Positions 1,308 through 44,769 of a stretch of DNA of 64,000 nucleotides are shown here, piece after piece. The position numbers were made by a program, and so were the translations under genes. The stretch comes from an uncultured Holophagales bacterium. GTDB lineage: Bacteria > Acidobacteriota > Thermoanaerobaculia > Multivoradales > UBA5704. Numbering within the stretch: the stretch's first letter is position 1; each line of letters starts with the position of its first letter. The notes under the pieces were generated by a model. The model saw only the letters and a program-made list of their open reading frames with translations, made no database searches and was not told the origin of the DNA. Where the stretch lies: the NCBI GenBank assembly GCA_963842525.1, contig CAWJGT010000003.1:1632001-1696000 (forward strand). Reading direction: 5' to 3'.

Positions 1308-2918
1308 TCAGAACTGGTCCACCCCCGGCCAACTGGCTCCACTGTTGACGATGCGCCACATCATGGCGTCGAGATTGATATCATCGGCCCCGTTCGGATT
1401 TGTTCCGTTCACGATCGCAGCCCAGACGTAGCCGCCGTTTGTGCGGACGAAGTTCGATTTTGTGCCAGGCAGGTATCCCTCGTGCCACCAGTTGGGAACC
1501 GAGTTGACTGACCACCCAAGCGCATAGCTCGACAGTGCCGATTTCGTCGTCATGATCTGGATCGTCGCCGGCGCAAGGATGTCGGGCCGGGTAGCGAAAC
1601 CGTCGACGCGGGTGCCGAAGCGGACGAGCGCCGCGGGAGGCGCGATCCAGCCGCCGTGAGCAGCCATGCGCCGGACGTTCATCGAATAGGCGCTCGCGGG
1701 AGGGTAGTATTTCACCTCGCTGGTCTTCCGCTCCGCCAGGGTGTTGCCCGCGATCTCCATGTCGGTGACGCCGCTGGGAACGAGCACGTTGTCCTTGACG
1801 AACTGTTCGTAGCTCATGCCGGACACCTTCTCGACGATACGCCCGAGCAAGGCATACCCGAAGTTCGAATAGCGATAGGAGGTTCCCGGGTCAGCCAGGA
1901 GCGCATAGGTCGGGCTGGTGAGCGTCCAGTTGATGAGGCTGTCGAGGTCGCGGGCCGGCTCCTTGAACATGGGATCGTTGCCGTTGTTGGTCCATGCCTC
2001 CCCGCCGGCTGTGTGCTGAAGCAAGTGGCGGACCGTGACCGCCTTGAGGCGGTCGCTGTACGGCTGGGTTCCGAAGGTTGTGCCCAGGAGGGCCCCCTCG
2101 CCGAACACCTTGTCGTCGAGGCTCAGCTTCCCTTGTTCCATCAGGCGCAGGATCGCCACCGAAGTGATCGGTTTGGAGACGCTCGCGATGCGAAGCCGGT
2201 GTTTGGGCGTCAGCAGCTCCGGCTGATCACCGGCCGTCTGCGGGTCCTTGTCCTTGTCCGCGACGCCATAGGCTTTTGCGAACACCATCACCCCATCCTT
2301 CGCGATGGCGATCGAGATGCCTGGAGGTCCGATCGCCACATCGTTCCCATTTGCATCCTTTTTCGTTTTGTTGAGCTCCGCCTTGACGATGTCGTCGATC
2401 TTCGGCCGCTCCCAGCCGAGCCCCGGGCACGTCTCCCACGCGATCGCCTGGTTGGGGTCGGCCGTCTCCCAGGAGCAGGTCAGCGTATAGGTGCCGTTGT
2501 TGAACTTCTCCGGAAACCACAGCACGGCGTTCGTGTAGCCGAAGTCCGGACGGCGGACGTGGACGCCCTGGCCCCCATAGTTGGCGATCGCGGAGGTGTC
2601 CTTCCCGTTTACCACCTGCTGAGAGCACGTGACCGGAGCCGTGGACGCCGGCATCAGCCCGGGAGGCAGCTCGTGGCGGACATAACCATACGTGGGACTT
2701 GACACCGGAATCGTGCCGGTCAGGGTCACCGTCGCACTGCCGCCTGAGCCATGGACCTTCTTGATCTTGAGGCTGGCAGGCTTGCCGCCCACCTGCGACC
2801 GATGGCAGGTGCCATTCCACGACAGAATCGTCGCATCTTCCTGCGCCGAGGCTGCGGACGCGGCGAGGATTGCAAGAGACAGGACAACCAGGGCAGCGCC
2901 GCGCGCTCTTTTCTGCAT
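1308..2918 (-). CDS. Secreted serine hydrolase, beta-lactamase (class C-like) family, with extra N-terminal domain
   Basis: Signal peptide; ASVSKP (SxxK), HLLQHTAG, YSNFGY and HEG motifs. Confidence 0.85.
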   Translation of the reverse strand: MQKRARGAALVVLSLAILAASAASAQEDATILSWNGTCHRSQVGGKPASLKIKKVHGSGGSATVTLTGTIPVSSPTYGYVRHELPPGLMPASTAPVTCSQQVVNGKDTSAIANYGGQGVHVRRPDFGYTNAVLWFPEKFNNGTYTLTCSWETADPNQAIAWETCPGLGWERPKIDDIVKAELNKTKKDANGNDVAIGPPGISIAIAKDGVMVFAKAYGVADKDKDPQTAGDQPELLTPKHRLRIASVSKPITSVAILRLMEQGKLSLDDKVFGEGALLGTTFGTQPYSDRLKAVTVRHLLQHTAGGEAWTNNGNDPMFKEPARDLDSLINWTLTSPTYALLADPGTSYRYSNFGYALLGRIVEKVSGMSYEQFVKDNVLVPSGVTDMEIAGNTLAERKTSEVKYYPPASAYSMNVRRMAAHGGWIAPPAALVRFGTRVDGFATRPDILAPATIQIMTTKSALSSYALGWSVNSVPNWWHEGYLPGTKSNFVRTNGGYVWAAIVNGTNPNGADDINLDAMMWRIVNSGASWPGVDQF

Positions 2919-3096
2919 TGCCGAATCCTCCATGATCGATCCTCCTTGCAAAGGGGATCTGGAGAAGACGCGCAGCGCTGCGCCGGATCTGGTCATCGTC
3001 CTTGCCGGGCGAGCGCCGAGAATCCTCTGGCGCCTCTGCCGCGGGGGACAACGCCGCGGGAGGCTTCTCCTCCCCGTCTTGCGATAAGATGTCTCC

Positions 3097-3456
3097 ATGC
3101 GGCCGGTATTCGCGGATCCCAAGACCGACTTCGTCTTCAAACGCATCTTCGGCAGCGAAGTTCACAAACCGCTCCTCATCGAGCTCCTCAATGCCTTGCT
3201 GGATGAGCTCGACCTGTACGACCGTGCGAAGATCGCCGAGCAGGATGCCCGCGGCGCCCTCAGCCTGGCCGAACGGCAGGGGCGCGAAGAGGGGCGGCAG
3301 GAAGGCCGTGCCGAGGGGCTGCGCGAAGCGATCCGTGACCTATGCCAGGCGTTTGAGATAGAGATTGACGCGGAGCGGGAAGCCCGGCTGGCCGGCATGG
3401 GGGTCGGCGAGCTGAAGGAGCTGCAGGCCCGCTTGTTGCGCGAGCCGCTGTGGTAG
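3097..3456 (+). CDS. Internally deleted Rpn/PD-(D/E)XK nuclease-family protein (N-terminal 35 aa joined to C-terminal tail)
   Basis: Near-identical to both ends of 29940..30902 but lacks about 190 central codons. Confidence 0.85.
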   Translation: MRPVFADPKTDFVFKRIFGSEVHKPLLIELLNALLDELDLYDRAKIAEQDARGALSLAERQGREEGRQEGRAEGLREAIRDLCQAFEIEIDAEREARLAGMGVGELKELQARLLREPLW

Positions 3457-3468
3457 GAGCTGAAGCAG

Positions 3469-3897
3469 ATGAAAACCCTCGAAGAGATTGAAGAAGAGGA
3501 ACGTTACGTTCCTGTGCCCAGGATCGATCCCAAGGACTCGGAAGATTACGCCGTCTTTCGCGAGACGTTCCTTCAGTATTTGGGGGCGAACGCGGCCGTT
3601 TCTGCTTTCAGGAAGTTTGGAATGGCCCTGAACGACCTCGCCGTTGAGCGATCCCCGCCCGCCCAGGTCTCCGCAGACGACCCAACCGCCGAGGAACTGC
3701 GGGCGGTCGTGGCCGATCTTCGTTTTCTTCAGGGCCATCTTCGAAACATCATTGACATCAGGGATCACTCCAATCTCCCCCGCCGCGAGGCGCGTCTGTG
3801 CCGGTTCGCGACCCGGATGGCCGAAAAAGTCGGGAAGCTCGCCGACGAGATCGAAAAGATGCTCGCGGAAGAGCCTCCGGAGAGCGAAAAACCCTGA
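3469..3897 (+). CDS. Hypothetical helical protein
   Basis: AGGAG upstream, plausible composition, directly downstream of the mini-Rpn. Confidence 0.65.
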   Translation: MKTLEEIEEEERYVPVPRIDPKDSEDYAVFRETFLQYLGANAAVSAFRKFGMALNDLAVERSPPAQVSADDPTAEELRAVVADLRFLQGHLRNIIDIRDHSNLPRREARLCRFATRMAEKVGKLADEIEKMLAEEPPESEKP

Positions 3898-4284
3898 ACC
3901 TCTGAAGGTCGGGACGCAGGGCATCGCCACAGTCAGGCGTGCTCAACACAAACCAGCTCACCCGAATGACGCGGTCGCACGAACCGCAGGCCGGTGTGGC
4001 GCCTCGTAGCGGCCATGCAGAGTTACGGGATCGCCCGGCTGCTTACGTTCTACGTCGGTCACTTCCGCAGCCTGCCGGTCACGATCCTCGACCCCGCTTC
4101 GCCGTGATCGGAGAGGTCGGGCTCCAAAACTGCATAGCGAGCAGCCCCGAGGACGAGCAACCGCCCGCTCTCCGGTCCCTGCCTCGATCTGCCGAAGAGG
4201 CTGATGATCCTCTAGAAGGCTCCTCCCTTCTGACGAGCCGCGATAGGGCTCGTCGGGAGAACCAATCCCTGAAAGGAGGAGCGT

Positions 4285-5232
4285 ATGGGACTGTACTGTG
4301 GAATCGACTTGCATTCAACCAACAGCTATCTCGTCGTGATGAACGAGCAACTGCAATCGGTCCTCAGCAGACGGGTGCCCAACCGTCTGGAGGCCGTCGT
4401 GGAAGCCCTGGAGCCCTTCCGGGAGCAGACCCAGGCGATCGCCGTGGAGTCCACCTTCAACTGGTACTGGTTGGTGGATGGCCTCATGGAGGCCGGCTAC
4501 GAGGTTCGCCTGGTCAACACCTCCGCGGTTCGCCAGTACGAGGGCTTGAAGTACGTCGATGATCGCCATGACGCCCGGTGGCTGGCGCGCCTGCTCCACC
4601 TCAACATTCTGCCCACCGGCCACATCTATCCGAAAAAGGAACGTGCTGTGCGAGATCTGCTGCGCCGCCGAACTTTTCTGGTGCGACAGCGCACCGCCAG
4701 CTTGCTGAGCGTCAAAAACGTCTTCTCGCGCTACACCGGGGTTCAAGTTTCCCTCAACGAGCTCAAGCGCATGACGGCCGAGCAGGTCGAGGAGCAGTTC
4801 ACGGACCCACACATCGCCTTGACGATCACGAGCAGCCTGGCGATCGCCCGCACCCTGAAAGACCAAATCTCCGGCATCGAGAAAGCTGTTCTCAAACAGG
4901 CCAAGCTGAGGCCCGAATTCGAGCTGCTCGAGAGCATTCCCGGCATCGGTTTGACCCTTGCCCTGACCATCATGTACGAGACCGGCTCCATTGCTCGCTT
5001 TGCCGAGGCCGGCCACTTCTCCTCCTACTGCCGCTGTGTACCCAGCCAGCACCTCAGCAACGGCAAGGTCAAGGGCTCCGGCAACGTGCGCAATGGCAAC
5101 CCGTACCTGTCCTGGGCGTTCACGGAGGCCTCGCACTTCGCCATCCGGTTCGAGCCCCTCGCCAAGCGTCTCTACGAGCGCAAGCGGGCCAGGACCAACG
5201 AGCTGGTCGCCCTGCTGTCCGGCGTCAACTAG
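4285..5232 (+). mobile_element. IS110-family transposase, C-terminus truncated at 5215 by IS21
   Basis: CGIDLH, AVEST, DD-x-x-DA, SIPGIG, S-x-GK and GNPYL motifs; AGGAGG RBS; last codons come from the IS21 end. Confidence 0.9.
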
Positions 5233-5457
5233 ATTTGAGGGTCGGCGACAATTAGAACTGCGGGATCCTCCTCCAGTTCGTGTCAACACTCCTACGGGGG
5301 GCGGGGGGGCTTCTTTTAGGGGGCCAGGTGGGGGCTGGTCGGTTTTTGACCTCCTTCCGGGGGCAGGGACTTAGCAGGGAAGGATGCCCGCAGCTGCGGG
5401 CATCCTTCAGCGATTGCAATTATGCGCCGTAACATGGCCTATCCAAGCTCCGGAAGC

Positions 5458-6234
5458 TCATGCCCCGCGGGCCCCCTTGGCTCCTGCAGCTCTCTCCTTG
5501 GCCGCCTGCGCCCGGTAGCTCTCGATGCTCAGCTCCAGGATCACCGAATGATGGACGATCCGATCCACCGCGGCCGCCGTCGTCATCGGGTCCTTGAAGA
5601 TCTGCTCCCACTTGCTGAACACCAGGTTGCTGGTGATCAGCACCGAGCGCCTCTCGTACCGCTCGGCGATCAGGGTAAACAGAACCTCCATCTCCTCGCG
5701 GCTTTGCTCGACGTAGCCGAGGTCGTCCAGGATCAGGGCTTCGAATCGGTCCAGCCGCTTCAGCTCGGCCGCCAGACGCAGATCCCGCTTCGCGGCCAGA
5801 AGCCGCTGGACGATCTGATACGTCGGGGAAAACAGCACCGTCCGGCCCCCGCGCACCAGCTCCTGGCCCAGACCGCAGACCAGGTGCGACTTGCCCGTCC
5901 CAGGGTTGCCAAACACGATCAGATTGGTGGCTTGGTCCAGAAACGAGCCGTCCTGAAGAGCGGCCAGGGCCGCCCTGGCCTTGGGCGGAAGCCGGCCTAC
6001 CTCGAAGCCCGCCAGGCTCTTTTCCCGCGGCAGCCTGGACTCCTGAAGCAGTCTCTCGACCCGGCGCTCGCACCGTTCGCTGGCCTCTTGCTCGGCAAGG
6101 GCCAGAAGATACCCCTCGTGGGTGAGCCCCCCACGCACCGCCTGAGCGGCCACCGTCGCGTACTCCCGGGCGAAGGTCGGCAGGCACAACGACTTCAGCA
6201 GCAGCGGCAACCCCGCCTCGCTGGCCGGCTTCAC
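5458..6234 (-). CDS. istB: IS21 helper ATPase IstB
   Basis: GNPGTGKS Walker A, LILDDLGY, ITSN, DRIVHH; GTG start overlaps istA stop. Confidence 0.95.
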   Translation of the reverse strand: MKPASEAGLPLLLKSLCLPTFAREYATVAAQAVRGGLTHEGYLLALAEQEASERCERRVERLLQESRLPREKSLAGFEVGRLPPKARAALAALQDGSFLDQATNLIVFGNPGTGKSHLVCGLGQELVRGGRTVLFSPTYQIVQRLLAAKRDLRLAAELKRLDRFEALILDDLGYVEQSREEMEVLFTLIAERYERRSVLITSNLVFSKWEQIFKDPMTTAAAVDRIVHHSVILELSIESYRAQAAKERAAGAKGARGA

Positions 6235-7706
6235 AGGCCACCTCCTGCCGCGGCGATGCACTCGTCGTAGACCCGCAGGTCCGGAGGATCGATCCGGCAC
6301 ACCGGCGGCTCCAGGCGCACCGGCCGAAGGGCCGTCTGTACCTGCGCGAAGTCCCGCAGCTCGCCGCCCTCCAACAGGGCCGAAAGCGCACCCTCCACCG
6401 CGCTTTCTCCCGTGCTCGCCGCCAGGTGCAGAATCCGCACATACTCCACGTCCGCCCGCGCTCCGTGACGCCCCTCCAGCGCATCATAGGTCTGCCGGAA
6501 AACCAAGCTCGGAAACAGCGCCTCCCGGTACCGGTAGCGCGCGAACGCTCCCGGCTTGCGGATCAACGACCAGATCAGGTGGCGATAGTCGATGGCGGCG
6601 TGACCGCGGCCCCGCAGGCGCTCCATCTCGGCCACCCGCTCACCGGCAAAGTGCACCTCGATCCGCTCCGCATACAGCCGAATGTCCACCCACTCGCCGA
6701 TCAACCGCGAGGCCACCGAGTAGACGTTGTTGGCCACCCGCAGGGTCGAAAACACGCTGACCCGCACCCGCTCCCGCCGGAAGTCGTCCAGGCGCGACAG
6801 CGGCAGATCCCTCATCCGCTCCAGCTCCTCGCGCAGCTTGACGGCTCGGCCACGGTTGCGCCCCGAAAAGATCTCACCCAAAAACACCTCGTACGCGGCG
6901 CGGCTCGAAAACTCCCGGCCCCCCCGCAGCAGAAGCGCCTGCTGGACAGCCCGCTTGAAGCGGTGGTGCGCCTGCTCCACATCGCCGTTTTCGTGGCCAC
7001 GCCCAGGGGTGTTGCAGTCGGGCTGGACCTGGTAGTGCGCCAGCGCACCCAGGTAGCGCTCGTTGAACGTCCGGCCCCCCTCGCCCAGCTCGTGGGTGGC
7101 CGCCGAAAGGTTGTCCGTCCGGTGTAGCTTCGGCACCTTGCTCAACTCCCAGACGGCGGCCTGGAAACCCCCGATGAGAGCCTCGAAACTCTCCGAAAAG
7201 CAGATCCCGCCCGTCTCCCAGTTCGAATACGGCAACACGAAGTGGAACATCAGGTGGTCGAACGGCTCGCCCCCGAGGCAAATCCCCAGCTCCGTCATGC
7301 TCGTGAAGTCGCTCTGGGCGTACTCCCCCGGCCGGTGTTCCTGCGCGAACATGACCTCCCGCTCGGGACCCTGCGACGCCCGCCAACGGCGGATCCGCCG
7401 CTGCAATGTACGCAGCTGACCGTCCGAAAAGCTCAGCTCCGGCCGCCCCCTCAGCAGCTCGAAGATCGTCACCGCCTCCAGGCCGGGCGCCTGCTTGAGC
7501 ATCCCTTCGATCTCCGGCCACACCCCGGCAAACGGGTCCGGCCGGGTCCGATACTGCCGCATGACCTTGCGCTGGCCCGGAAGCGCACCCTCGCGATACC
7601 GCCGTGCCGTGTTCTCACTCATCCCAGAGCGCAGAGCTGCGCTCGACAGCGACTCTCCCTTGCCAAGTTCCATCCTCAACCTCCTTACCTACTTATCCGT
7701 CAACAT
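6231..7706 (-). CDS. istA: IS21 transposase IstA (amber codon at codon 6; alternative start near 7673)
   Basis: HTH, QSDFT, TDN, ENGDVEQ and YSV motifs. Confidence 0.9.
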
Positions 7707-7888
7707 CAGCCCCCCAATTCATGAGGGGCAAGAGCCTACGGGACAAGCGTTTACGAGGACTGGAACCCCGCAATTCTAATTGTCGTCACCCCGCAGTTCT
7801 AATTGTCGCCGAACAACCGGGAGGCGCGACGTCCAAAGACCGTGCTGGAGCAGGTGGAAATCGTGGAAAAGGTCCACAGCTCGATCCG

Positions 7889-8356
7889 CTATGTGCACAC
7901 TTTCCAGGGCGCCCTATAGTCAGAATAGGCAGGATCTCCGTAGAACTCCAAGATCATTTGTCGCAGTGATAAATTATTGGCGCCGCGGCCCGCTAATATT
8001 CTCATCGCATCGGTACCGTCAACACTCATGATGCCAAAAAGGAGGTGGGCAGGAGCTACTAAGTGGCCGAGCGTTTCGGCTTCATGTGCAGCATAGACAA
8101 GGACCTTCTTGACGTCCTCCGAGAGAGGAATCTCTCTCGTTAGGTGCTCGCGAACAGGTTCTGCCCCGAGCTCAGCGCGGATGCCATTGGCTTCTATGCC
8201 GTATCGTCGAAATATTTCTGAAACGACATCGTCTTCGATCTCGAAGAGCCCTAAGAGGATATGGTGAGTGTCAATCATCTCCCAGGCAAGTTGGTTCGCT
8301 GCGGACCGAGAAAAGAACAAAGCGAGCTTCGCCTTTTCGTTAAATTTTTCGAACAT
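7889..8356 (-). CDS. Stand-alone Clp N-terminal (Clp_N repeat) protein
   Basis: MFEKFNEKAK...HILLGL and second repeat LSEDVKKVL...HLLFGI; GGAGG RBS. Confidence 0.8.
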   Translation of the reverse strand: MFEKFNEKAKLALFFSRSAANQLAWEMIDTHHILLGLFEIEDDVVSEIFRRYGIEANGIRAELGAEPVREHLTREIPLSEDVKKVLVYAAHEAETLGHLVAPAHLLFGIMSVDGTDAMRILAGRGANNLSLRQMILEFYGDPAYSDYRAPWKVCT

Positions 8357-8560
8357 CTATTCCCTCCGCTTCATGATAGCTAGGTCGAGCATGCTTGCTC
8401 ATTCCGGCCGCTATGCTGTACTGGAGCGCTGAGACCACTAGCTATCGATACAAATATCAGTTTACGAGACTTTGGCATCCTCGTCAACGTGCGGCTGATT
8501 CCTCCTCGCGACCGCGGATAAGGCACTCGTTGCCGAGGCGCCGATAGCAAACGCATGGCA

Positions 8561-10591
8561 GTGCGACACGAAGGGAGGTCTGATGTGAGCTGATTTGCAG
8601 ATTACAGAGAGACCTCCTGGGTCTCGAAGGCCAGCGGGTGGAAGTCCCGCCCGGGGAATTGTCGGTTCGCCCGGTAGCCACTGGAGCAGCCGAGCTCGAG
8701 CAATCGTCCGGCTGAAGCCTCCGGGGAAGTCCTCGGTGCAACCGAGGTGCAAATGCGCAGGCCGAAAAGCACGTGAACCCTGAGCAGGCCTCGATAGTTT
8801 CTCGCTGGAGCCGACCCTCCTGCCATAAGGGGAAGGCCGTCGGGGGGTGGGGGAGCAACCGACCGAAGAACCCGTCCTCTCCAGCCGGGGTAGTGGGGTC
8901 AGCATGCGCAGACAAGGTCTTTGAGGCAACGTGTGAGATCCACATAGGTGGTGGGTCGCGGCCACCAACCGAGGTGATCTGAAATGGTCAGCCTCGGGCC
9001 GTGTGGAAGTCGGAGGGGCCCATGGTACCGAGGAAGCGCCGGTGGAGGGACGGAGCCCTGGTTCGGGCATGCTTCTCAACGAGAAGGAGACCGGGAATTG
9101 ACGATGAGTCTAGAACCCGATCAAGTCGAGCGACTCCGGAAGAAGCTGTATGAGAAGGCCAAGCGGGAGCCAGACTTTCGGTTCTACACGCTGTACGACA
9201 AGGTGTGCTGGGCGGAAACCCTGGAGAGGGCCTACCGACAGGCGAAAGCCAACGACGGAGCGCCCGGAGTCGACGGGGTCCGGTTTGAGGACATTGAGGC
9301 GTACGGTGTAGAGCGGTGGCTGGCCGAGCTTCGGCAGGAACTGGTGGAAGAGACCTACCGCCCCCAACCGGTGCGGCGGGTGATGATCCCGAAGCCCGGC
9401 GGAGGCGAGCGTCCCCTCGGAATCCCGACCATCAGGGATCGGGTGGTGCAGACCGCCGTCGTGCTGATCCTTGAGCCGATCTTCGAAGCTGATTTCGAGG
9501 ACAACGTCTATGCCTACCGGCCGGAGCGCAGTGCGCACGGCGCACTGGCCGAGGTGCAGGGGCGGTTGTATGGAGGCCAGCAGCACGTCGTAGATGCCGA
9601 CGTGACGAAGTACTTCGACACCATCCCCCACGCCGAGCTGTTGCAGAGCGTGGCCCGGCGGGTGGCCGACGGGAAGATCCTGCATCTGCTCAAGCTGTGG
9701 CTGAAATCCCCGGCGGAAGAGAGGGATGAGAGGGGAAACCGGCGGATAACAGGCGGCAAGAAGAGCAAGCGGGGGACTCCTCAAGGCGGAGTTGTTTCAC
9801 CTCTGATGGCTAACATCTACATCAACCGTCTTCTGCGCCACTGGAGGAAGACCGGGGCGACGCAACGGTTGGGACAGATCGTCTCCTATGCCGATGACTT
9901 CGTGATTGTCTGCGCAAGCCGCCGCCAGGCCGAAGAAAGTCTGGCGCTGGTATCGCGCTGGTTGGCGAAGCTCGGGCTGACGCTTCATCCCACCAAAACG
10001 CGCCTCTGTCACGCCCGAGAAGAGCCGTTTGACTTCCTGGGCTACACCTTCGGGCCGGTGCGGCACTGGCTGAGCGGGAAGAGATTCATCTCGGCTCGGC
10101 CATCCAAGAAGGCCCAGAAGAGGCTCAAGGAGAAGATCAACATCCGGCTACGCCGGGGAAACCCAACCCCTTGGCCCAAGCTGCGAGACCGGCTCAACCG
10201 ACTCCTGTCGGGGTGGGCCGAGTACTTCAGCTTCGGTTTTACGGGCCAAGCTGACACAGCCATCAGCTGGCACGTGCGGGCACGGGTTCGGCGATTCCTC
10301 TGCCGGCGGCATAAGCTGCGCGTCAGCGGAACCAGCCGATTCAGCTACTCTGAGATCCATGGCAAGGCGGGAGTGATCGACATCCGCCAGAGGCGCCTGC
10401 AAGGAAGTCCCGTGCATGCCCTCTCGTGAAGCCCGTCCGAGAGCCGGATGCGGGAGATCCGCAAGTCCGGTTCGATGAGCGGCGGTGGGAAACGGAGACA
10501 CGGCCGAGACTGAGGCACCGGCGAGTGGCGAAAGCCGCCGGAAACAGCTACTCCCTCGACCTACAGACACCGCGCCCGCCGCCGACTCTAC
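8561..10591 (+). mobile_element. Complete bacterial group II intron
   Basis: 5' GTGCG; EBS1 TGCCAT (8821-8826) complementary to IBS1 ATGGCA (8555-8560); domain V GAGCCGGATGCGGGAGATCCGCAAGTCCGGTTC at 10441; 3' end ACTCTAC. Confidence 0.92.
9104..10429 (+). CDS. ltrA: Group II intron reverse transcriptase/maturase, no endonuclease domain
   Basis: APGVDG, RPLGIPTIRDR, GTPQGG, YADD, FDFLGY motifs and domain X. Confidence 0.95.
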   Translation: MSLEPDQVERLRKKLYEKAKREPDFRFYTLYDKVCWAETLERAYRQAKANDGAPGVDGVRFEDIEAYGVERWLAELRQELVEETYRPQPVRRVMIPKPGGGERPLGIPTIRDRVVQTAVVLILEPIFEADFEDNVYAYRPERSAHGALAEVQGRLYGGQQHVVDADVTKYFDTIPHAELLQSVARRVADGKILHLLKLWLKSPAEERDERGNRRITGGKKSKRGTPQGGVVSPLMANIYINRLLRHWRKTGATQRLGQIVSYADDFVIVCASRRQAEESLALVSRWLAKLGLTLHPTKTRLCHAREEPFDFLGYTFGPVRHWLSGKRFISARPSKKAQKRLKEKINIRLRRGNPTPWPKLRDRLNRLLSGWAEYFSFGFTGQADTAISWHVRARVRRFLCRRHKLRVSGTSRFSYSEIHGKAGVIDIRQRRLQGSPVHALS

Positions 10592-36786: not shown

Positions 36787-36916
36787 AGCGCGCTCTCCTA
36801 TGGAAGTGAGGGTTCGGCGCCACTATACAGGATCTTCGCAGCGCGGCAGCGCCTTGCCGGAAAGCCGTGCTTCGCGGTAGCTTTTCTCTATTCACTCCAC
36901 GAGTGAGGAGAAGAAC

Positions 36917-39361
36917 CTGATCCGGCCCAAGGTCTTCGTCAGCTACTGCCACGAGGATGGCGCAATCCTCGAACAGGTCCGGATCCACCTCCGGCTGCTC
37001 GAACGGGACGGGCTCGTCCAGTCGTGGACGGATCAGAGCCTCCAGATTGGAGACCGCTGGCAGGAAAAGCTCGACGAGGCGCTCGAAGGCGCAACTGCCG
37101 CGGTGCTGATCGTGTCGGCGGGTTTCCTGGCCTCGGACTTCATCATGACGCAGGAGCTGCCCCGCATCCTGGCCCGGGAGGCGGCCGGCGAGCTCAAGGT
37201 CATTCCCATCTTCTGGAGCGACTGCCTGGCGGATCGCGAAATCGCCTTCGCCGAGGAGCGGACCGGCCGGCGGCGGACAAGGAAGCTGACGGCCTTCCAG
37301 GGGATCGGCTCGCCGCAGGAGCCGCTGGCGGGCCTCTCGTGGCCGGATCGGGAAAGGGAGCTGACCGGCCTTGCCCGCAGGCTTCTGGCCCTCGCAGGCT
37401 CAGGGACGACGCCCGTCCCTCCGCCGGTCCCAAGGCCGCCTACCACCGGTCCGGCCCGGGAGTACACGCTGACGGTCCGTCTGGAGCGCCGGGACGACGT
37501 CCTGGAGGTGCACTACCACCTCCCGGGGACCGACGCGATCGGCTCTGCCAGCCGGCCCTGGAAGGAGATCCAGGCCGAGGTGGCGCCCATCGCCGCGGCT
37601 CTCGACCATAGCGGTGACTTCGCCGTCCCGTCATCCTGGGGCGAGTCCCTCGCCAGGGTCCTCTTCGGGCCGGCTCCCCAGTGGCAGCCGGTGCTGCGCG
37701 TCCTCTTCGGCGCGCCCGAGCCCGCGCCGCAGCCGACGCCGCTGCGGGGGCCGGCCCGCCTGCGGGTCTGTACCGAGGACGCCCTCCTCGCCGGCCTGCC
37801 CTGGCGATTGACCTCCTGGAACGGCCGCGTCCTGGCGGAGATGGCTCCCGCCGGCTGGATCTTCGAGGTGATCCGGACCCTCGATCCCACCGGCGATTTC
37901 ACCACGACGGCCCCGTGCAACGTGCTCGTCGTGGCGCCGGCTGCCGCCGCCGAGGCCGGCAAGCTCCACGACCCCATGCATCCGAGGGCGGTCGCGGAGG
38001 TGCTCGGCGACGTCTGGCCGACCGGCCGCGATCCGGGCTACCTGCGCGTCGTGCGGACGCGGTTGGAGCTGGAGAAGGCTCTCGCCGGCATGCGTCCTCA
38101 TGTCGTCTACGTCTATGCGACCGGGGAGGTGGTGGGCGGCCGTCCGGCCCTTGTCCTGGACGGGGACCGGGAGGGCACCGTCGACCGGCTCCCCCTCGGC
38201 CGCCTGGCGGGCCTTTTCCAGGAGGCCGGCCACCGGCCTTCCGTGCTCTACCTCAACACCGCGGGCCTCGGCGCCGCCGCGCAGGCCCTGGACGGCAATG
38301 TTCCTCTTGTCCTCTGGCGCCGGCTGCCGGCCTGGACGCCCGAGTCCACCTCGGTCGCCCTCGCCTGGCTGCGCCGCTGGCTCGGCCGCGGCGAGGACCC
38401 GGTCGCGGCCCTGCACGAGGTCGCCCGCGACGATGCCGGACAGGAAGCCGCCACGCTGGCGGTTGCCGCCTCGTACCGTGCCTGGAGCACGCCGGCGTAT
38501 CAGGCCGTCGCCGTCCAGGACCGGTATGCGCGCCTCCGGCTCGACCGCCGGGAGCAGAAGGCGCTCGTCGCCCGTGACCTGCGCGAGCTCGTCCGCGGCG
38601 ACGGCTTCCGCACCCTGGCCCTCGTCGCCTATGCCGCGCCGGGCAATGCGATTCACTCCCTGGCCGCGCAGCTCGAGCACGACTTGGAGCTGGAAGTCGA
38701 GCCCTTTGCTGCGATCAAGTGGCGGCGGCTGGAATTCCCTCAGCGCCGGACGCAGCTTCGCGAGGACCTCCGGCATGAGCTGCACCTGCAGCTCGAAGCG
38801 GAAGCCAACGAGGTCACGCAGCACCTGCTGCGCCGGCATGCCCCGAAGGCGCTGCGGCCGGGCCGGCGGGCTGTCCTCTGGCTCGACTGGGGCTGTTTCG
38901 GCGAAGGCCACCAGCCGCCGCTGAGCCCGCCGCAGCTCGGCGAGTGGCTTCGCTTCTCCAGCGAATTCCTCACCGTCCACTGCCCGGCGGACCTGCGCCT
39001 CGTCTCCTTCCTGGCTGCCGAGGCCGAGCCGGCCCGGCACCAGCGCCTGAGGAAGGTCCTGGCGGACCAGGAGAGCGAGCCCTGGTGCCAGAGCCCCGCC
39101 TTCCTCTTCACCGCGCTGCCGCCGCTCGGCGACGTCGCGGAGGCCGACCTGCGCAAGTTCCTGCGCGATCCCGGCAACACGAGCTGCGATGCGGGCATCC
39201 AGACCGACGTCGCCCGGCGGATCTTCCAGCGGACCGGCGGCAATTTCGAGCAGACTGTCGCCCTTCTCGAAGAGGGGCAGAAGGGCTCGTGGTACGATCT
39301 GCTGAAACGCCTGCAACGCGAGCAGGGAGGCGCCCTGCCCGTCGACGACGAACCATTTTGA
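36917..39361 (+). CDS. TIR-domain protein with CHAT-like middle and degenerate STAND-like C-terminus (ternary-system component)
   Basis: VFVSYCHED...FLASDFI..ELP TIR in frame upstream of ORF 37103; start uncertain (CTG after GAGGAG); non-TIR domains inferred. Confidence 0.75.
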
Positions 39362-40278
39362 GCGAGCCCCTCCCCTTCGAGCTGCTGTCGCCGGACGACC
39401 ACGGCCCGGGCCGCCGGGAAGCCCTGGCCCGGCGCGAGCTTCCCGCATCGCTCGGCAGCCACGGGGTGGCCGCGCCCCTCTACCGGCCGGACCCCGGGCT
39501 GGTGGACGCCGTCAACGTCGCGCTGGCCGTGGGCGCGCCGCTCCTCCTCACCGGCGAGCCCGGAACCGGCAAGACCCAGGTCGGCCACTACCTCGCCTGG
39601 TATTTCGGCGTCGAGCTCTTCCCTCTCTACGTGCGCAGCACCACCACCGCCGAGGACCTCCTCTACCACTTCGACGCAGTCGCCTACCTCCACGCCGCCC
39701 AGGTGGGCCGTGTCGAGGCCATCGCCAAGGCGGATTTCGTCGAGAAAAGGCCGCTGTGGCAGGCCTACGAGGTGGACGGTCCCTCGGTCGTGCTCATCGA
39801 CGAGATCGACAAGGCGCCCCGGGACTTTCCGAACGACCTCTTGAACGTCCTCGATCAGCACACCTTCTACGTACCGGAAAGCAACCGCCAGGTGAGCCGC
39901 CGGAAAGGGGCACCGCCGCCGGTCGTGGTGATCACCAGCAACAGCGAGCGGCGGCTGCCCGAGCCGTTCCTGCGCCGCTGCGTCTTCCACCACATCGAGC
40001 TCACCGAGGAGCTGCTGCGCCGCGCCGTCGAGGCCCGGATCGGCGACTTCCCGGGCCTTTCCGCCACGGTGCGCGAGGCAGCGGTCCAGCGTTTCCTCGA
40101 GCTGCGCGGGCGCGAGGTCCGCAAGAAGCCGGCCACGGCCGAGCTGCTCATCTGGCTCACCGTGCTCTCCGCCCGCGGCGGCGTCACCGCGGAGCGGCTT
40201 ACCCTTTGCCGTCTGGCCGAGCTGCCGGCCGTTTCGGCCCTGATCAAAGACCGCGACGACTTGGCCCTCCTCGGCTGA
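39358..40278 (+). CDS. MoxR family AAA+ ATPase
   Basis: [49 protein letters not shown]; TTG overlaps upstream stop. Confidence 0.92.
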
Positions 40279-40595: not shown

Positions 40596-43244
40596 ATGAG
40601 CAACCTCGGCCTCGAGCCCCTGCTCGCCGCCCTGCGCGAGGCCGGGCTGCGGGCCGGCGTCGCCGAGCTGCTGCGCCTGCGCGAGGTGTTCGCTCGCACG
40701 CCGGACCTCGCTGATCCGGCAGGACGAGACCAGGAGAGGCTCCGCTCGGTGCTGCGTGCCGTGCTCGTGAAGTCCCTGGACGAGCGCACTGCATTCGACC
40801 GCGTCTTCGATGCCTGGAGCGAGCGGGCGGAGCAGGAATTGTTGGCGCGCAGCTCCTTGCCACGGTTCGCTGAGGTAGGCCGCAGGCCCGCCGGGAGCCG
40901 TAGCCGCTGGCGGCGCCTGGGCTGGCCGGCGGCCGTCCTTGCGCTCCTGGGCCTCTGCGCCGCTCTGGGGCCGGACACCGTCTGGTCTCCGCCTCCTAAG
41001 CCACCTCCTGCGGTTGCCGGCAAGCTGCGCCCTCCCGAGCCGGTCGCAGGCGAGAAACCTGCGCCGGCTGTGACGGAGACCGTCAACCCGCCCGAGCCCG
41101 CGTGGCAGGGTTGGCCGGCCCTCGGGCTAGGGCTCCTCGCGCTCGCCACGGCCGGCGGGCTCTGGCTCGCGCTGCGCCGCCGGAGCTGGCTGCCGGCGCC
41201 CGAGCCTCTGCCGAGCCGCGAGGGGCCGCCGCGGGTCTTCCTCACCCCGGCTCCGCTCCCGGGTCTCCAACTCCTCGACGCCCGCCAGGAGGACGCCCTC
41301 GTCTGGGGGATCGGCCATTTCGTGGCGGAGGAGCCCACCCGCCGCCTGGATGCCGCGGCCACCGTGCGTGCCACGGCGCGCGAGGCCGGCATCCCCCGGC
41401 TGATCTTTCACCGGGCGCGCTACCACCGTGAAGTCTGGCTTTGGGTCGATGAGGCGGTCGATGACCCCACCCTGCTGCTTCTTGCCGAAGAGATCCAGGC
41501 CAGCCTTGCCGCCCATGGCCTGCCGGTCGAGCGAGCCACGTTCCACGGCCTTCCCGACCGGCTCGTCACTGCCGAGGGCGCTGTCTTCGCCCCATCCGAG
41601 ATCGACGAGCGGCGGGACGAAACCCTGGTGGCCGTCCTCACCGACGGCCGCCTCCTCGCCCGGCAGCACGCGGCCGACGACCGCCGCGTGGTCATCGAAG
41701 CCCTGCTGCGCAACCTCTCCCACTGGCCGCACCTCGCCTTTGTGGGCTTCGGCGACGGCGCGGAGGGCCTGAGGCCGATCCTCGCCCGGCACGGCCTTCC
41801 ACTGGTGCCTCCCGCCGGCCTCGTGGCGTTCCTGGGCGGCCGGACCGCGTCTTCGCCGCGAGCACGGTCCGCCCCCTCGCTCGACGACGCTGCCTGGGCC
41901 GCGGCCTGCGCCCTGGCTCCGTCCTCCATTGCCGAGGCCACCGCCCTGCAGATCCGCCGGCGGCTCAAGCTCGCCACCTCGCCCTGGGCCCTGCACGCCT
42001 TGCGGGCCGAAGCCCAGGCGGGGCCCTCGGGGCGTCTCGCCTGGAAGCCCGCCGACCGCGCCCGCCGGCTGAACGAGCTGCGGGAGGCAGAGGTGCAACC
42101 TGCTGGTGGTGGGATCGCTCCCGCCACCCTGTTCGGCCAGGCTTTGCAGATCTGGGAGGATCTCTATGAAAAGGAGCTCAGCCGGCGGACCGGCGAGGCG
42201 GCGTCGGGGGAAGGCACTCCGGCCTATCAGCTCCTGCGGATGGAGAGGGCCCTGCTGCGCCTGTGGGGCAAACAGGCCGGCGAGGCCGTGCGCGAGCTCT
42301 ACGCCCTGTTTCAGGGGGCGTTGCGCGAATTGATCCCGCTCCATCTCGCGGCCGTGGCGCCTGCGGGAATGGGCGGGGACGAGCACATCCGATTGCCCTG
42401 GGCCTGGGAGACTCGTCCGCCGGCTGAGAAGGCGATGCTCCGGGAGATGGGGCTGGGCGGCGGCTTGCCGCCGGTCCGCCTGCGCCGGCCGGGCCGCCTG
42501 TGGCTGGGGATCGGGACATGTCTGGGCCTTGCCCTGGGCGGTCTGGCCGTGGCGGCCTTCCCCTGCCGGCCCGGGCAGGAGATCACAGTCCAGGGAGTGG
42601 TCTTTGTTCGCATCTGCCCCGGAACCTTCATTATGGGCTCCGCAGTGGACGATCGTCTTGCGGATCCCAGTGAGAGGCCGGCTCACCGCGTCACCCTGGG
42701 CGAATTCTGGATCGGCAGGACGGAGGTGACCAACGCCCAATATCGGCGTCTGCCTCCAGGCCGCGGGAGCAACGCCGAGCTGCCGGTGACGGACGTGACC
42801 TGGTCCGAAGCGCAAACGTTTTGCCGCTCCCTCGGCGGTCGCCTGCCCACGGAAGCGGAATGGGAATATGCGGCGCGTGCAGGCACCCGGACACCGTGGT
42901 CGTTCGGCAGCGACGAGAACCAGACCGGCCGCTACGCCTGGTTTGACGGCAATTCCGGCGGCAAGCCACATCCGGTAGGCCGGAAAGAGCCCAACCCATG
43001 GGGCCTCCATGACATGCACGGCAACGTCTGGGAGTGGGTGGCGGACTGGCTCGGGGATTACACACCGCAAGCTCAGACGGACCCGACAGGTCCGACGTCG
43101 GGTCAGTACCGCGTGCTGCGGGGGGGCTCCTTCAGCAACGCGCCCTGGGTCCTGCGCTCCGCGGACCGGGACGGGTTCGAGCCCGAGTTCCGGTACGGGT
43201 TCGTCGGCTTCCGCTGTGTGCGCGCCCCCCGCCGCCAGCCTTGA
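40596..43244 (+). CDS. vWA-like + FGE-sulfatase (C-type lectin fold) protein; DGR target 1
   Basis: LDAAATVRATAREAG, WLWVD and VLTDG vWA-like motifs; FIMGS, RLPTEAEWEYAAR, DMHGNVWEW, RGGSF, GFRC. Confidence 0.88.
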   Translation: MSNLGLEPLLAALREAGLRAGVAELLRLREVFARTPDLADPAGRDQERLRSVLRAVLVKSLDERTAFDRVFDAWSERAEQELLARSSLPRFAEVGRRPAGSRSRWRRLGWPAAVLALLGLCAALGPDTVWSPPPKPPPAVAGKLRPPEPVAGEKPAPAVTETVNPPEPAWQGWPALGLGLLALATAGGLWLALRRRSWLPAPEPLPSREGPPRVFLTPAPLPGLQLLDARQEDALVWGIGHFVAEEPTRRLDAAATVRATAREAGIPRLIFHRARYHREVWLWVDEAVDDPTLLLLAEEIQASLAAHGLPVERATFHGLPDRLVTAEGAVFAPSEIDERRDETLVAVLTDGRLLARQHAADDRRVVIEALLRNLSHWPHLAFVGFGDGAEGLRPILARHGLPLVPPAGLVAFLGGRTASSPRARSAPSLDDAAWAAACALAPSSIAEATALQIRRRLKLATSPWALHALRAEAQAGPSGRLAWKPADRARRLNELREAEVQPAGGGIAPATLFGQALQIWEDLYEKELSRRTGEAASGEGTPAYQLLRMERALLRLWGKQAGEAVRELYALFQGALRELIPLHLAAVAPAGMGGDEHIRLPWAWETRPPAEKAMLREMGLGGGLPPVRLRRPGRLWLGIGTCLGLALGGLAVAAFPCRPGQEITVQGVVFVRICPGTFIMGSAVDDRLADPSERPAHRVTLGEFWIGRTEVTNAQYRRLPPGRGSNAELPVTDVTWSEAQTFCRSLGGRLPTEAEWEYAARAGTRTPWSFGSDENQTGRYAWFDGNSGGKPHPVGRKEPNPWGLHDMHGNVWEWVADWLGDYTPQAQTDPTGPTSGQYRVLRGGSFSNAPWVLRSADRDGFEPEFRYGFVGFRCVRAPRRQP
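43110..43244 (+). repeat. DGR variable repeat VR1
   Basis: 119/135 nt identical to VR2; all mismatches at codon positions 1-2. Confidence 0.85.
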
Positions 43245-43267
43245 GCCCTTGACCCTTTGCTCTTTTT

Positions 43268-43290
43268 CCGCCCCTGCGGAGCGGGGGCGG
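43268..43290 (+). promoter_or_regulatory. DGR-type target hairpin (GGA loop)
   Basis: CCGCCCCTGC-GGA-GCGGGGGCGG, 23 nt after the VR1 stop. Confidence 0.7.
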
Positions 43291-43342
43291 GCGATTTTTT
43301 CCCGGTTGACATGAGTTGTCTGGCCCCTGACAATCCGCTGTC

Positions 43343-43483
43343 ATGCAACTGACCTTGGAGGAAGCGGCGGCTCGCCTCGGCAGGACGCCTCGGCAAGGTC
43401 CGTGCCGGCATGGGCTGGATCTCACCCCCTCTGTCCCCATGCGCATCAAACCTACCGAGCTGCGCCCGATCGCCCCGGGTTGA
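43343..43483 (+). pseudogene. Helix-turn-helix (excisionase-like) gene fragment
   Basis: MQLTLEEAAARLGRTPRQ, then breaks off. Confidence 0.55.
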
Positions 43484-43596
43484 CACCCGGGGCTACCCAG
43501 TCCCGCCCTCCGGGCTCTCGAATTCTGGGCACTTCGACTGCCGTTCTTGCGAGCCCGGAGGGCGCCATTCGGTAGCCCAGGGTGTGAACCCTGGGC
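43472..43596. repeat. REP doublet (REPIN-like)
   Basis: CCCCGGG..CCCGGGGCTAC, CGCCCTCCGGGCTC / GAGCCCGGAGGGCG, GTAGCCCAGGG..CCCTGGG. Confidence 0.75.
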
Positions 43597-43603
43597 GAAG
43601 GCT

Positions 43604-43663
43604 CTGCTCGCCGACATCGGGCCGACGTACGAGCAGGGCTTCATCGACCAGAGCTACGCCTGC
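43604..43663 (+). pseudogene. Reverse transcriptase fragment (DGR-type)
   Basis: LLADIGPTYEQGFIDQSYAC resembles the P-x-(F/Y)-E-x-x-F-I-x-x-S-Y-A-C segment of DGR RTs. Confidence 0.65.
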
Positions 43664-43757
43664 TGGGCGCTGACCGCCTGGTGCGCAGCCTTCGCTCGTA
43701 CCGGGGATTGTTGTTGTCAGTTTGACGACGATTGTCAGATATCTCACAAAAAATTCG

Positions 43758-43774
43758 CCCCTGCTTCGCAGGGG
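43758..43774 (-). promoter_or_regulatory. DGR-type target hairpin (GAA loop)
   Basis: CCCCTGC-GAA-GCAGGGG, 23 nt after the VR2 stop. Confidence 0.7.
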
Positions 43775-43797
43775 GAAAAAGGTCAAAAGGCAAGAGA

Positions 43798-43932
43798 TCA
43801 AGGCTGGTGGCGGGGGGCGCGCACACAGCGGAAGCCGACGTTCCTGTCCCGGTACCCGGGCTCGAACCTGCCCCGGTCCGCGGAGCGCAGGTACCTGGGC
43901 GAGTCGTCGAAGGAGCCCCCCCGCAGCACGCG
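43798..43932 (-). repeat. DGR variable repeat VR2
   Basis: Inverted homologue of VR1. Confidence 0.85.
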
Positions 43933-44769
43933 GCCCGGTCCCTTCTCGGGCCCCGATGGGTCGGCCTGCCGCTCGGCTCTGTAGGGCCCGAACCAGTCCC
44001 AGCACCATTCGAAGACATTCCCATGCATGTCGTGGAGGCCCCACGGATTGGGCTTGCGCGCGCCCACAGGCTGGGGCTCGTTCTGGGAGTTGCCGGCGAA
44101 CCAGGCGAACTGTTCGAGCTCGGTCACGTTGTCTCCGAACGACCAGCGGGTCTGCGTTCCGGCGCGACAGGCGTACTCCCACTCCGCTTCGGTGGGGAGG
44201 CGGTAGCCGTTCGCCGCCCGGTTCCAGGACACGGCATCGCCTTCGATCGCATAGCAGGGGGTGAGGCCTTCTTTTGCGGACAACGCGTTGCAGAATCGGG
44301 CGGCGTCAAGCCACGAGACGTTGTTGACCGGACGATCACCGGCAGCGCCTTCCGGCCAGCCGGGGTCGTCGCCCAGGATCTCGGCATACAGGCGCCGCGT
44401 TACCTGGAAGCGCATGCACCGGAAGGCGGAGACAGTCACTTCGTGGAGTGGCCCCTCGCTGCCGAATCTTCCTTCTTCCTCTTCCGGGCTGCCCATCCGG
44501 AAGGTGCCTGCGGGAATCGCGATCAGGTCGACCAGAGGCTCGGGCTCGGTGGGAAGGATCATCTCCTCGACCGGCTCACCGCTCCAGGCGAGCCGTGCGG
44601 CAGCGCCTAGGAGGATTACGAATCCTGCCAGAGCCGTGGGCCAGGGCAGGGCCGATGTCAGGGTAAACCCGGCAAGCCCGCCGATCAGAAGCCCGCAGGC
44701 CGTGGCTTGCCAGCTCGGGACACGGTCCAGCCGGCGCAGGACGGCGGCGAACGGCGGGTTTCGCGGCAT
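43798..44769 (-). CDS. Membrane-anchored FGE-sulfatase domain protein; DGR target 2
   Basis: Two N-terminal TM helices; FRMGS, YRLPTEAEWEYACR, DMHGNVFEW, RGGSF, GFRC. Confidence 0.9.
   Translation of the reverse strand: MPRNPPFAAVLRRLDRVPSWQATACGLLIGGLAGFTLTSALPWPTALAGFVILLGAAARLAWSGEPVEEMILPTEPEPLVDLIAIPAGTFRMGSPEEEEGRFGSEGPLHEVTVSAFRCMRFQVTRRLYAEILGDDPGWPEGAAGDRPVNNVSWLDAARFCNALSAKEGLTPCYAIEGDAVSWNRAANGYRLPTEAEWEYACRAGTQTRWSFGDNVTELEQFAWFAGNSQNEPQPVGARKPNPWGLHDMHGNVFEWCWDWFGPYRAERQADPSGPEKGPGRVLRGGSFDDSPRYLRSADRGRFEPGYRDRNVGFRCVRAPRHQP

Follow-up and report, generated by a model that had tools for sequence, protein, structure and literature searches.

Results

Two convergent genes with FGE-type 3' ends

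The window is the whole 64,000 nt stretch of DNA analysed here. Within it lie two convergent genes, A and B, separated by a 553 nt spacer. Gene A (positions 40596 to 43244, forward strand) encodes a protein of 882 amino acids. An FGE/C-type-lectin-fold domain forms its C-terminus, preceded by a long N-terminal extension that includes hydrophobic segments. Residues 12-94 weakly resemble the MadC-family N-terminus (E = 2.2e-7, below the cut-off), and residues 1-685 match no Pfam family. Gene B (43798 to 44769, reverse strand) probably encodes 323 amino acids; its product has a pair of hydrophobic segments besides an FGE/C-type-lectin-fold domain. The longest open reading frame for B extends to 45486; the orthologous proteins have 324 residues in G002, a genome of the window's own genus, and 339 residues in L066, a locus described below. 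The ends of both A and B match the FGE-sulfatase domain PF03781 (E = 4e-53 and 6e-51 respectively), and the closest solved structure for B is TvpA (2Y3C, E = 8.6e-43).

Directly upstream of A is a gene for a MoxR-like AAA ATPase (38944 to 40278, forward strand; PF07728 AAA_5, E = 3.8e-14). The real start of this gene is probably later than 38944. The product also resembles the NCBIfam MadB-family ATPase, with an E value (7.6e-19) below the cut-off for that family. A TIR-domain gene occupies the frame running stop to stop from 36881 to 39361 on the forward strand (PF13676 TIR_2, E = 5.8e-13, residues 18-115 of the frame). No ATG, GTG or TTG precedes the TIR part, and the open reading frame listing begins only at 37103. 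This gene likely supplies the effector of the conflict-type operon around it.

The repeats at the ends of A and B differ at template adenines

We compared the 3' ends of the two genes codon by codon, working backwards from the stop. The last 135 nt of A (43110 to 43244, forward strand) and of B (43798 to 43932, reverse strand) align without gaps and have 16 mismatches in 13 codons. These are the exact values given by the first-pass annotation, which had been made from the sequence alone. Nine mismatches are at first codon positions, seven at second positions and none at third positions. Conversely, the 165 nt directly upstream of the repeats have 18, 15 and 26 mismatches at positions 1, 2 and 3. 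The share of third-position changes thus differs between the two regions (Fisher test, p = 6.5e-4).

The TRs of two intact homologous DGRs, L066 (3481-3607) and L072 (1169-1293), served as references for the template. Both loci come from wider sequence collections; a search of 92 family genomes gave no intact close RT. L066 has the same gene pair, a short B-like gene and an A-like gene of 1150 amino acids, on either side of a TR and a full RT of 332 amino acids. According to a codon table read by eye, all differences between variable repeat and TR inside the L066 repeat fall in codons with a template adenine. Template adenines account for 31 of the 135 aligned positions, and 15 of the 16 mismatches between A and B coincide with them (hypergeometric P = 1.4e-10). 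Both genes end in a C-type-lectin-fold domain with a 3' repeat that varies at template adenines, and these comparisons support the assignment of the 3' ends of A and B as DGR variable repeats. Adenine-specific mutagenesis by a DGR had been proposed in the first-pass annotation, together with a common template deduced from the two repeats. By eye, 73 of 75 bases in that predicted template are identical to the L072 TR; the two exceptions are lineage-specific non-adenine positions.

At the remaining 104, non-adenine, positions there is a single difference between A and B, and there are 8-10 differences between A/B and the G002 pair. We infer that the A/B pair was homogenised after the lineages split and has hardly drifted since. 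Three codons, at -81, -69 and -42, are AAC in both reference TRs, yet have the same non-A bases in the A and B repeats. To account for them one needs selection, a local TR of another sequence, or a degree of conversion between the repeats.

A GC hairpin follows each repeat. The hairpin 3' of the A repeat (43267 to 43291, forward strand) has 11 pairs and a GGA loop, and starts 22 nt after the stop codon. The hairpin 3' of the B repeat (43758 to 43774, reverse strand) has 7 pairs and a GAA loop, and starts 23 nt after the stop. Earlier, such hairpins with GNA loops had been placed 23 nt beyond each stop, which agrees with what we find at 22-23 nt. In the intact L066 locus a similar hairpin with a GAA loop follows the A repeat. 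Each window hairpin precedes a T run, so that both also look like intrinsic terminators; the A hairpin would fit a DGR target hairpin and a terminator alike. In the DGR of Bordetella phage BPP-1, as reported in PMC3240598, hairpins with stems of 7-10 bp lie 4-34 bp from the variable repeat and have a 4-nt GRNA loop consensus. The window hairpins share the GC-rich stem and the position shortly 3' of the repeat. They differ from the description in that source in having loops of 3 nt, and in the T runs that make them possible terminators.

The spacer between A and B holds remains of a DGR cassette

The spacer contains the first 18 codons of an HTH gene, a multicopy MITE and two fragments of an RT gene. 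A promoter-like site (43306 to 43334, forward strand; TTGACA, 17 nt, GACAAT) precedes the HTH remnant, and alignment revealed the same arrangement ahead of the G002 HTH gene. The remnant itself (43343 to 43396, forward strand) was recognised by protein comparison as part of an accessory, excisionase-family HTH gene. It is identical to the G002 HTH protein at 13 of 18 residues and to the HTH protein of this genome's other DGR at 9 of 17; the G002 protein matches TIGR01764 'excise' (E = 1.2e-5). These 18 codons are all that is left of an accessory gene, Avd or other, at the locus, and the spacer gave no Avd-like match.

The segment that separates the HTH remnant from the MITE (43397 to 43477, forward strand) is unassigned filler. 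A by-eye likeness of this segment to RT motif 1 was rejected; local alignments to the 5' regions of the L066, L072, G002 and G024 RT genes scored no better than shuffled sequences. Next is the MITE-like repeat, with terminal inverted repeats (43478 to 43598, borders approximate). BLAST returned 90 matches to it in the assembly, 63 of them of at least 110 nt; both strands are counted, hence these are not copy numbers.

RT fragment 1 (43601 to 43663, forward strand) corresponds to residues 88-109 of the intact L066 RT. It is identical to the G002 RT at 16 of 21 residues and to the L066 RT at 17 of 22 (E = 5.9e-9), and its DNA is 81-84% identical to L066 and L072. RT fragment 2 (43663 to 43725, forward strand), found by protein comparison, consists of the last 20 codons and the stop, and 17 of its 20 residues are identical to G002 RT residues 246-265. 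About 200 codons have been deleted between the two fragments. Thus, in place of an intact DGR-type RT there are two pieces in separate frames, one of about 21 codons and the other of about 20. The remnants of the HTH gene, the middle of the RT and the end of the RT keep the order of a cassette, with a frame change and the MITE in between.

Searches of the assembly gave no cognate template or RT

The genome assembly comprises 9.95 Mb in 34 contigs and is 96.4% complete. The first-pass annotation had noted that the window lacks a template and had named a whole-genome BLASTN for a TR beside an RT as the check. BLASTN and a position-by-position scan detected no adenine-rich third copy of the repeat, either in the window or elsewhere in the assembly; such TRs are present in L066 and L072. 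DNA spanning the TR, spacer and RT start of L066 and L072 matched the assembly only at the two window repeats and at older paralogue ends on contig C24. The C24 matches (129267, 130703 and 133384) are coding 3' ends of tandem FGE paralogues, and were rejected as templates because their mismatches to the L072 template also include many at non-adenine positions.

A cognate RT was not found elsewhere in the assembly either. Using tblastn, the only other DGR-type RT in the genome was 670 kb away with its own unrelated TR. None of the 92 family genomes, G000 included, contains an intact close RT homologue. The best matches are fragments in G002 and G024, and all remaining matches are 35-45% identical.

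Public reads were also searched. One run, the soil metagenome X1, contains 0.21 of the sampled words, all of them in assembled contigs. Runs X1-X3 yielded short, low-depth pieces of the window that span neither repeat. One 151-nt X1 contig matches 43336-43486 exactly; this run may share a sample with the window's assembly.

Related genomes have eroded cassettes in both orientations

The relatives have the same gene pair, and their cassettes eroded independently and lie in both orientations. In the window and in G024, genes A, HTH and RT are read in one direction towards the oncoming gene B. In G002 and L066, B is instead the gene read in the same direction as the RT, and A is the one that opposes it. 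The orientation of the cassette relative to its targets therefore differs among relatives and does not agree with kinship. G002 and G024 have lost the same segment, with RT-side breakpoints four codons apart, and these near-coincident breakpoints hint at a preferred deletion path. A candidate template for the G024 pair, at position 2868455 of contig C3 in that genome, was another coding FGE 3' end.

Discussion

A two-target DGR that probably died in place

We consider it very probable that the locus is the wreck of a two-target DGR, whose cassette was destroyed where it stood and whose repeats are frozen and not hypervariable. In the working form, intact in L066, the cassette sits between two convergent sensor genes. 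RNA from the TR would be copied into cDNA, with errors at adenines, and this would replace the last ~125 nt of both genes. Such rewriting should keep the non-adenine positions of the two repeats identical while AAC and AGG codons are randomised. In the window genome the TR, any Avd gene and the greater part of both the HTH and the RT genes would then have been lost through deletions, and the MITE would have inserted. On this account there is no template in the window because the cassette decayed in place. Both variable repeats would retain their last-written sequences and now evolve as ordinary DNA. The first-pass annotation had left two options, diversification in trans or freezing. Given the dead cassette between A and B, and the lack of a cognate TR or RT in the assembly, the repeats are most likely frozen. 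We infer that there was past homing at the locus, that loss and freezing were recent, and that no TR is supplied from outside the assembly.

Diversification in trans would require a cognate TR and RT outside the assembled contigs, on a plasmid, a prophage or in an unassembled repeat region. The completeness of the assembly and its 34 contigs leave room for this, and remote targets are known in other DGRs, according to PMC4891356 and PMC8144416. The two hairpins and the GC-rich ends of the repeats have stayed intact, and near-identity at non-adenine positions would suit a still-active system as well. However, the cognate RT is recognisable, and dead, at the locus itself, and its intact close homologues are absent from the 92 family genomes. 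Furthermore, G024, which is 99% complete in 4 contigs, also lacks a TR for its pair. We regard supply from outside the assembly as improbable. There is scarcely any chance that the rewriting is done by the genome's other DGR (contig C3, about 958-962 kb, locus L011). That cassette is complete, with target, HTH, Avd, TR and RT, and 15 of its 16 mismatches between variable repeat and TR are at TR adenines. However, its RT frame is broken by a one-base frameshift before the YVDD motif. Its TR was not recovered when the genome was searched with the window repeats, and the 3' ends differ in alignment. A TR without homology to the window repeats offers nothing for homing to use.

A reading without any retroelement, in which gene conversion of the inverted 3' ends combines with diversifying selection on binding residues, is strongly disfavoured and very unlikely. 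The repeats are inverted copies able to recombine, and the inversion of the cassette relative to G002 and L066 indicates that such recombination happened; the three codons with shared non-A bases also suit conversion. Yet conversion would remove differences as well, and selection alone leaves the coincidence of 15 of 16 mismatches with TR adenines unexplained (P = 1.4e-10). The RT and HTH remnants in the spacer are equally unaccounted for.

A further suggestion, which we make tentatively and think somewhat less probable than its opposite, is that the cassette of this DGR family can invert, with its own pair of inverted variable repeats as the borders. Recombination between these borders would then swap which target lies beside the promoter, the accessory gene and the template side. 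It would put the cassette at risk of loss as well, and this may explain targets outliving the retroelement among the genomes examined.

Published parallels and implications

The literature already contains both leftover DGR targets and degenerate DGR loci invaded by MITEs. PMC4891356 describes FGE-type C-type-lectin targets whose repeats differ mostly at adenines from the TR of related genomes, and whose own genomes lack both RT and TR, and treats them as likely leftovers. Genes A and B are likewise FGE-type, have the adenine-position signature against relatives' TRs and have an RT and TR that are gone or pseudogenised; B also matches TvpA (E = 8.6e-43). In contrast to the leftovers as that report presents them, the dead cassette, with its HTH and RT fragments and MITE, is still visible between the targets. 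Those leftovers are lipoproteins, whereas the window targets are predicted membrane proteins in a MoxR/TIR operon, and the host is a Holophagales-type acidobacterium. In PMC10907252, 'degenerate' DGR loci are described as having key machinery missing or pseudogenised, with MITE-like repeats in place of DGR components. The window resembles these in its missing or pseudogenised RT and TR, in the MITE within the cassette and in the adenine signature it has kept. The same report describes clade 5A, MoxR-associated two-target loci in Thiohalocapsa PB-PSB1 and relatives. By gene arrangement, the window is alike in having a long target that has no known domain in its N-terminal part and is directly preceded by a MoxR-like ATPase gene, and a short CLec-only target (B, ~323 amino acids). 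The window's host is not among the multicellular bacteria discussed there.

The locus provides a clean, datable case of a hypermutation system dying. Template and RT erode, and the diversified sensor genes remain intact with their last-written binding sites. Annotation pipelines that require an RT beside the repeat pair overlook such loci. The two cassette orientations, and the erosion observed in several lineages, add modestly to knowledge of DGR turnover and leave the understanding of the mechanism unchanged. The TIR/MoxR operon is of the kind proposed as antigen-sensing conflict systems, and sensors of this sort can persist with fixed specificity.

Two convergent genes end in a shared repeat

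Gene A (40596..43244, + strand; 882 aa) and gene B (43798..44769, − strand; 323 aa) converge, and each ends in an FGE-sulfatase, C-type-lectin-fold domain. The start of gene B is probable; its longest ORF extends to 45486 and the start at 44769 gives an orthologue-like length. A spacer of 553 nt (43245-43797) separates the genes. Aligned backwards from the stop codons, the last 135 nt match without gaps. Thirteen codons hold the 16 mismatches, which spare every third position; this re-count agrees with the first-pass annotation. The 165 nt before the repeat contain 59 mismatches, and third positions account for 26 of these (Fisher p 6.5e-4 for the third-position share, repeat versus upstream). 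Each stop is followed by a GC hairpin and a T run. The distance, earlier put at 23 nt, is 22-23 nt, and the 3-nt loops are GGA and GAA. In phage BPP-1, a hairpin 3′ of the variable repeat (VR) is required; its stem is 7-10 bp, its loop has the 4-nt GRNA form and it lies 4-34 bp from the repeat (PMC3240598). The window hairpins fit this description apart from their 3-nt loops.

TvpA of Treponema denticola is a classic FGE-type target of diversity-generating retroelements (DGRs). It is the nearest solved structure to gene B (2Y3C, E 8.6e-43), and the name of that entry calls it a variable protein.

The repeats differ at template adenines

Homologous elements were sought in public collections using an RT fragment from a relative. 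Two, L066 and L072, were recovered with the relevant part intact. L066 comprises a short B-like gene (1341..2360), a template repeat (TR) of 127 nt (3481-3607), a full RT of 332 aa (3803..4801) and a convergent A-like gene (4925..8377; 1150 aa). The TR shares 85% identity with the B-like gene's repeat, and its complementarity to the A-like gene's repeat is 86%. Inside the repeat, all VR/TR differences in our codon table are in codons with a template adenine. Translations of the A-like gene and window gene A have similar N-terminal beginnings. In L072, a closely similar TR (1169-1293) precedes an RT of the same kind. In L066, the interval from the short target to the TR (2360-3480) gave no recognisable HTH or Avd gene by tblastn. 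This stretch contains an opposite-strand ORF of 113 aa, plus repeat-like sequences.

Measured against these two TRs, 15 of the 16 A/B mismatches coincide with template adenines, which occupy 31 of the 135 positions (hypergeometric P 1.4e-10). The exception, a G/A difference, lies within the GC-rich repeat end, 11 nt before the stop. Hence, the DGR origin proposed in the first-pass annotation is supported. Compared by eye, the AAC-rich template deduced there has 73 of 75 bases as in the L072 TR; the other two are sites of a lineage-specific, non-adenine base in both window repeats. At three codons that are AAC in both TRs, the window repeats have identical non-A bases. To account for this, the lost template must have differed slightly from those two, or selection must have acted, or one repeat must have converted a patch of the other, possibly in connection with inversion of the cassette.

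The spacer contains a dead cassette

In + strand order, the spacer begins with the hairpin of gene A. A promoter-like TTGACA-17-GACAAT (43306-43334) follows, and then an excisionase-type HTH gene of which the first 18 codons remain (43343-43396; 13/18 residues identical to the HTH protein of G002, a relative of the same genus). After an 81-nt stretch with no feature assigned comes a MITE-like repeat with terminal inverted repeats (about 43478-43598). A 21-codon RT fragment (43601-43663) matches residues 88-109 of the L066 RT (17/22 identical, E 5.9e-9). Directly joined, in a different frame, are the last 20 RT codons and stop (43663-43725; 17/20 identical to G002). The hairpin of gene B is the last element. 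Roughly 120-145 nt long, the MITE-like repeat has copies at dozens of places in the genome (90 BLAST matches, 63 of at least 110 nt, counting both strands). The cassette has thus lost its TR, any Avd gene, the HTH gene beyond codon 18, and both the beginning and about 200 central codons of the RT. This explains why the window has no TR.

The template is absent from the assembly

The assembly (9.95 Mb, 34 contigs, 96.4% complete) was searched in three ways: by BLASTN of the window repeats at word size 7, by a scan of both strands scored on 119 invariant repeat positions, and by BLASTN with TR, spacer and RT-start DNA of L066 and L072. All three returned only the window repeats and the coding 3′ ends of FGE paralogues on contig C24. 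Thus, the absence of a TR noted earlier for the window extends to the rest of the assembly, and the whole-genome BLASTN of the VR that the first-pass annotation proposed recovered no TR beside an RT. The C24 locus has four tandem FGE-domain paralogues (127000-133600; L012: 3060-9519). The best match, the final 135 nt of the first paralogue, agrees at 103/119 invariant positions and is without a hairpin. Its differences from the L072 TR include 15 non-adenine positions, of which 6 are third codon positions, and rule it out as the template; the sequence has the look of a former target that is older and has drifted.

The genome has 18 RVT_1 matches, most of which are multicopy RTs of 450-530 aa. 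Their identical scores at several loci suggest the group II intron type. One match, at window 9386-10051 (contig C3, 1641386-1642051), is within a 483-aa open frame, has the same scores on contigs C9 and C23, and probably represents the RT of a mobile group II intron. With the L066 RT as tblastn query, only two places are DGR-like: the 22-residue spacer remnant and a second DGR, L011, outside the window and 670 kb away (C3, about 958000-962000; L011: 5084-8945). L011 is a complete cassette of target, HTH gene, Avd, VR/TR pair and RT. Its target is a 412-aa ORF with an FGE/CLec-like C-terminal region, and its Avd gene matches NF033474 below the cut-off (E 2.7e-11). The VR and TR (145 nt) are 89% identical, with 15/16 mismatches at template adenines. 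Just ahead of the YVDD motif, a single-base frameshift interrupts the RT, either as a real pseudogene or through an assembly error.

Neighbouring genes resemble known systems

Directly upstream of gene A is a MoxR-like ATPase gene (38944..40278; AAA_5), preceded by a TIR-domain gene (36881..39361). The ATPase resembles MadB (E 7.6e-19, below cut-off). Residues 12-94 of gene A (40596-40880) show a weak likeness to the MadC-family VWA N-terminus (E 2.2e-7, below cut-off). A system akin to the MadC/MadB ATPase/VWA type is suggested by the gene A N-terminus and neighbouring ATPase. The TIR_2 domain stretch has no ATG, GTG or TTG from the preceding stop (36878-36880) to 37103; the gene may use a non-standard start codon, for instance a CTG following the GGAG motif near 36907.

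Clade 5A loci are described as combining a MoxR-like ATPase with two targets, one long and lacking known N-terminal domains and one short and CLec-only; they also have an HTH gene, and TIR or peptidase effectors lie close by (PMC10907252). In a comparison of gene layout, the window is exactly as described there. The authors propose a role for the diversified proteins in sensing antigens within conflict systems, and they report "degenerate" loci without key machinery, as well as MITE-like repeats in place of DGR parts. Leftover targets without RT or TR are described for T. denticola isolates (PMC4891356). The window thus holds a decayed-DGR locus of a kind already known.

Origin of the window repeats

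We consider it very probable that a two-target DGR once wrote both repeats and that its engine then decayed in place; the variable repeats would have been left frozen. The first-pass annotation had allowed for targets either frozen or diversified in trans. The former is favoured, since the cognate RT is demonstrably dead in the spacer. Diversification in trans from unassembled DNA would draw on the incompleteness of the assembly, but faces that same dead RT and is unlikely.

Other sources fare worse. Were L011 rewriting the window repeats, its template should resemble them; however, searches with the window repeats did not recover it, and the repeat ends differ in alignment. We give this almost no weight. 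Gene conversion combined with selection, without any retroelement, is scarcely more probable, as it leaves both the match to template adenines and the RT remnants unexplained.

Loss of the template in related lineages

The repeat family is present in 11 of 41 genomes (the window's own and 40 relatives). Convergent pairs like that of the window occur in G002 and in G024 and G020, which belong to other genera of the family. In G002, 115 HTH codons are fused to an open 265-codon RT without its first ~66 codons. In G024 the HTH piece is shorter and the RT, which has several frameshifts, begins at residue 63; the G024 pair has no template in a 4-contig, 99%-complete genome. Nothing was recognisable in the G020 spacer. 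Among 92 family genomes, the window's own included, there was no intact close homologue of the window RT. The RT truncation points of G002 (L043, about 1971-1990) and G024 (L058, about 1848-1860) are nearly equal, at L066 RT residues 67 and 63; the HTH-side breakpoints differ. Such near-equal truncations in two genera could reflect a hot spot for deletion, or a first deletion that both share.

The HTH side of the cassette follows long gene A in the window and G024, and short gene B in G002 and L066. Orthology was assigned from the non-repeat part of the domain, in which B-types are 59-66% identical to one another and about 50% to A-types. Both orientations would be explained most simply if recombination between the inverted repeats had flipped the cassette.

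Within each genome, both repeats have lineage-specific bases in common. Over the 104 non-adenine positions, there is 1 difference between A and B and there are 5 within the G002 pair, compared with 8-10 between these two genomes; both repeats of the G024 pair carry the same 3-nt insertion. This sharing points to a template that worked in every lineage after the lineages split and was then lost independently in each. In our reading of the alignment, the G024 pair has gained third-position differences. The window pair has none, which argues for a recent loss of the template in the window lineage.
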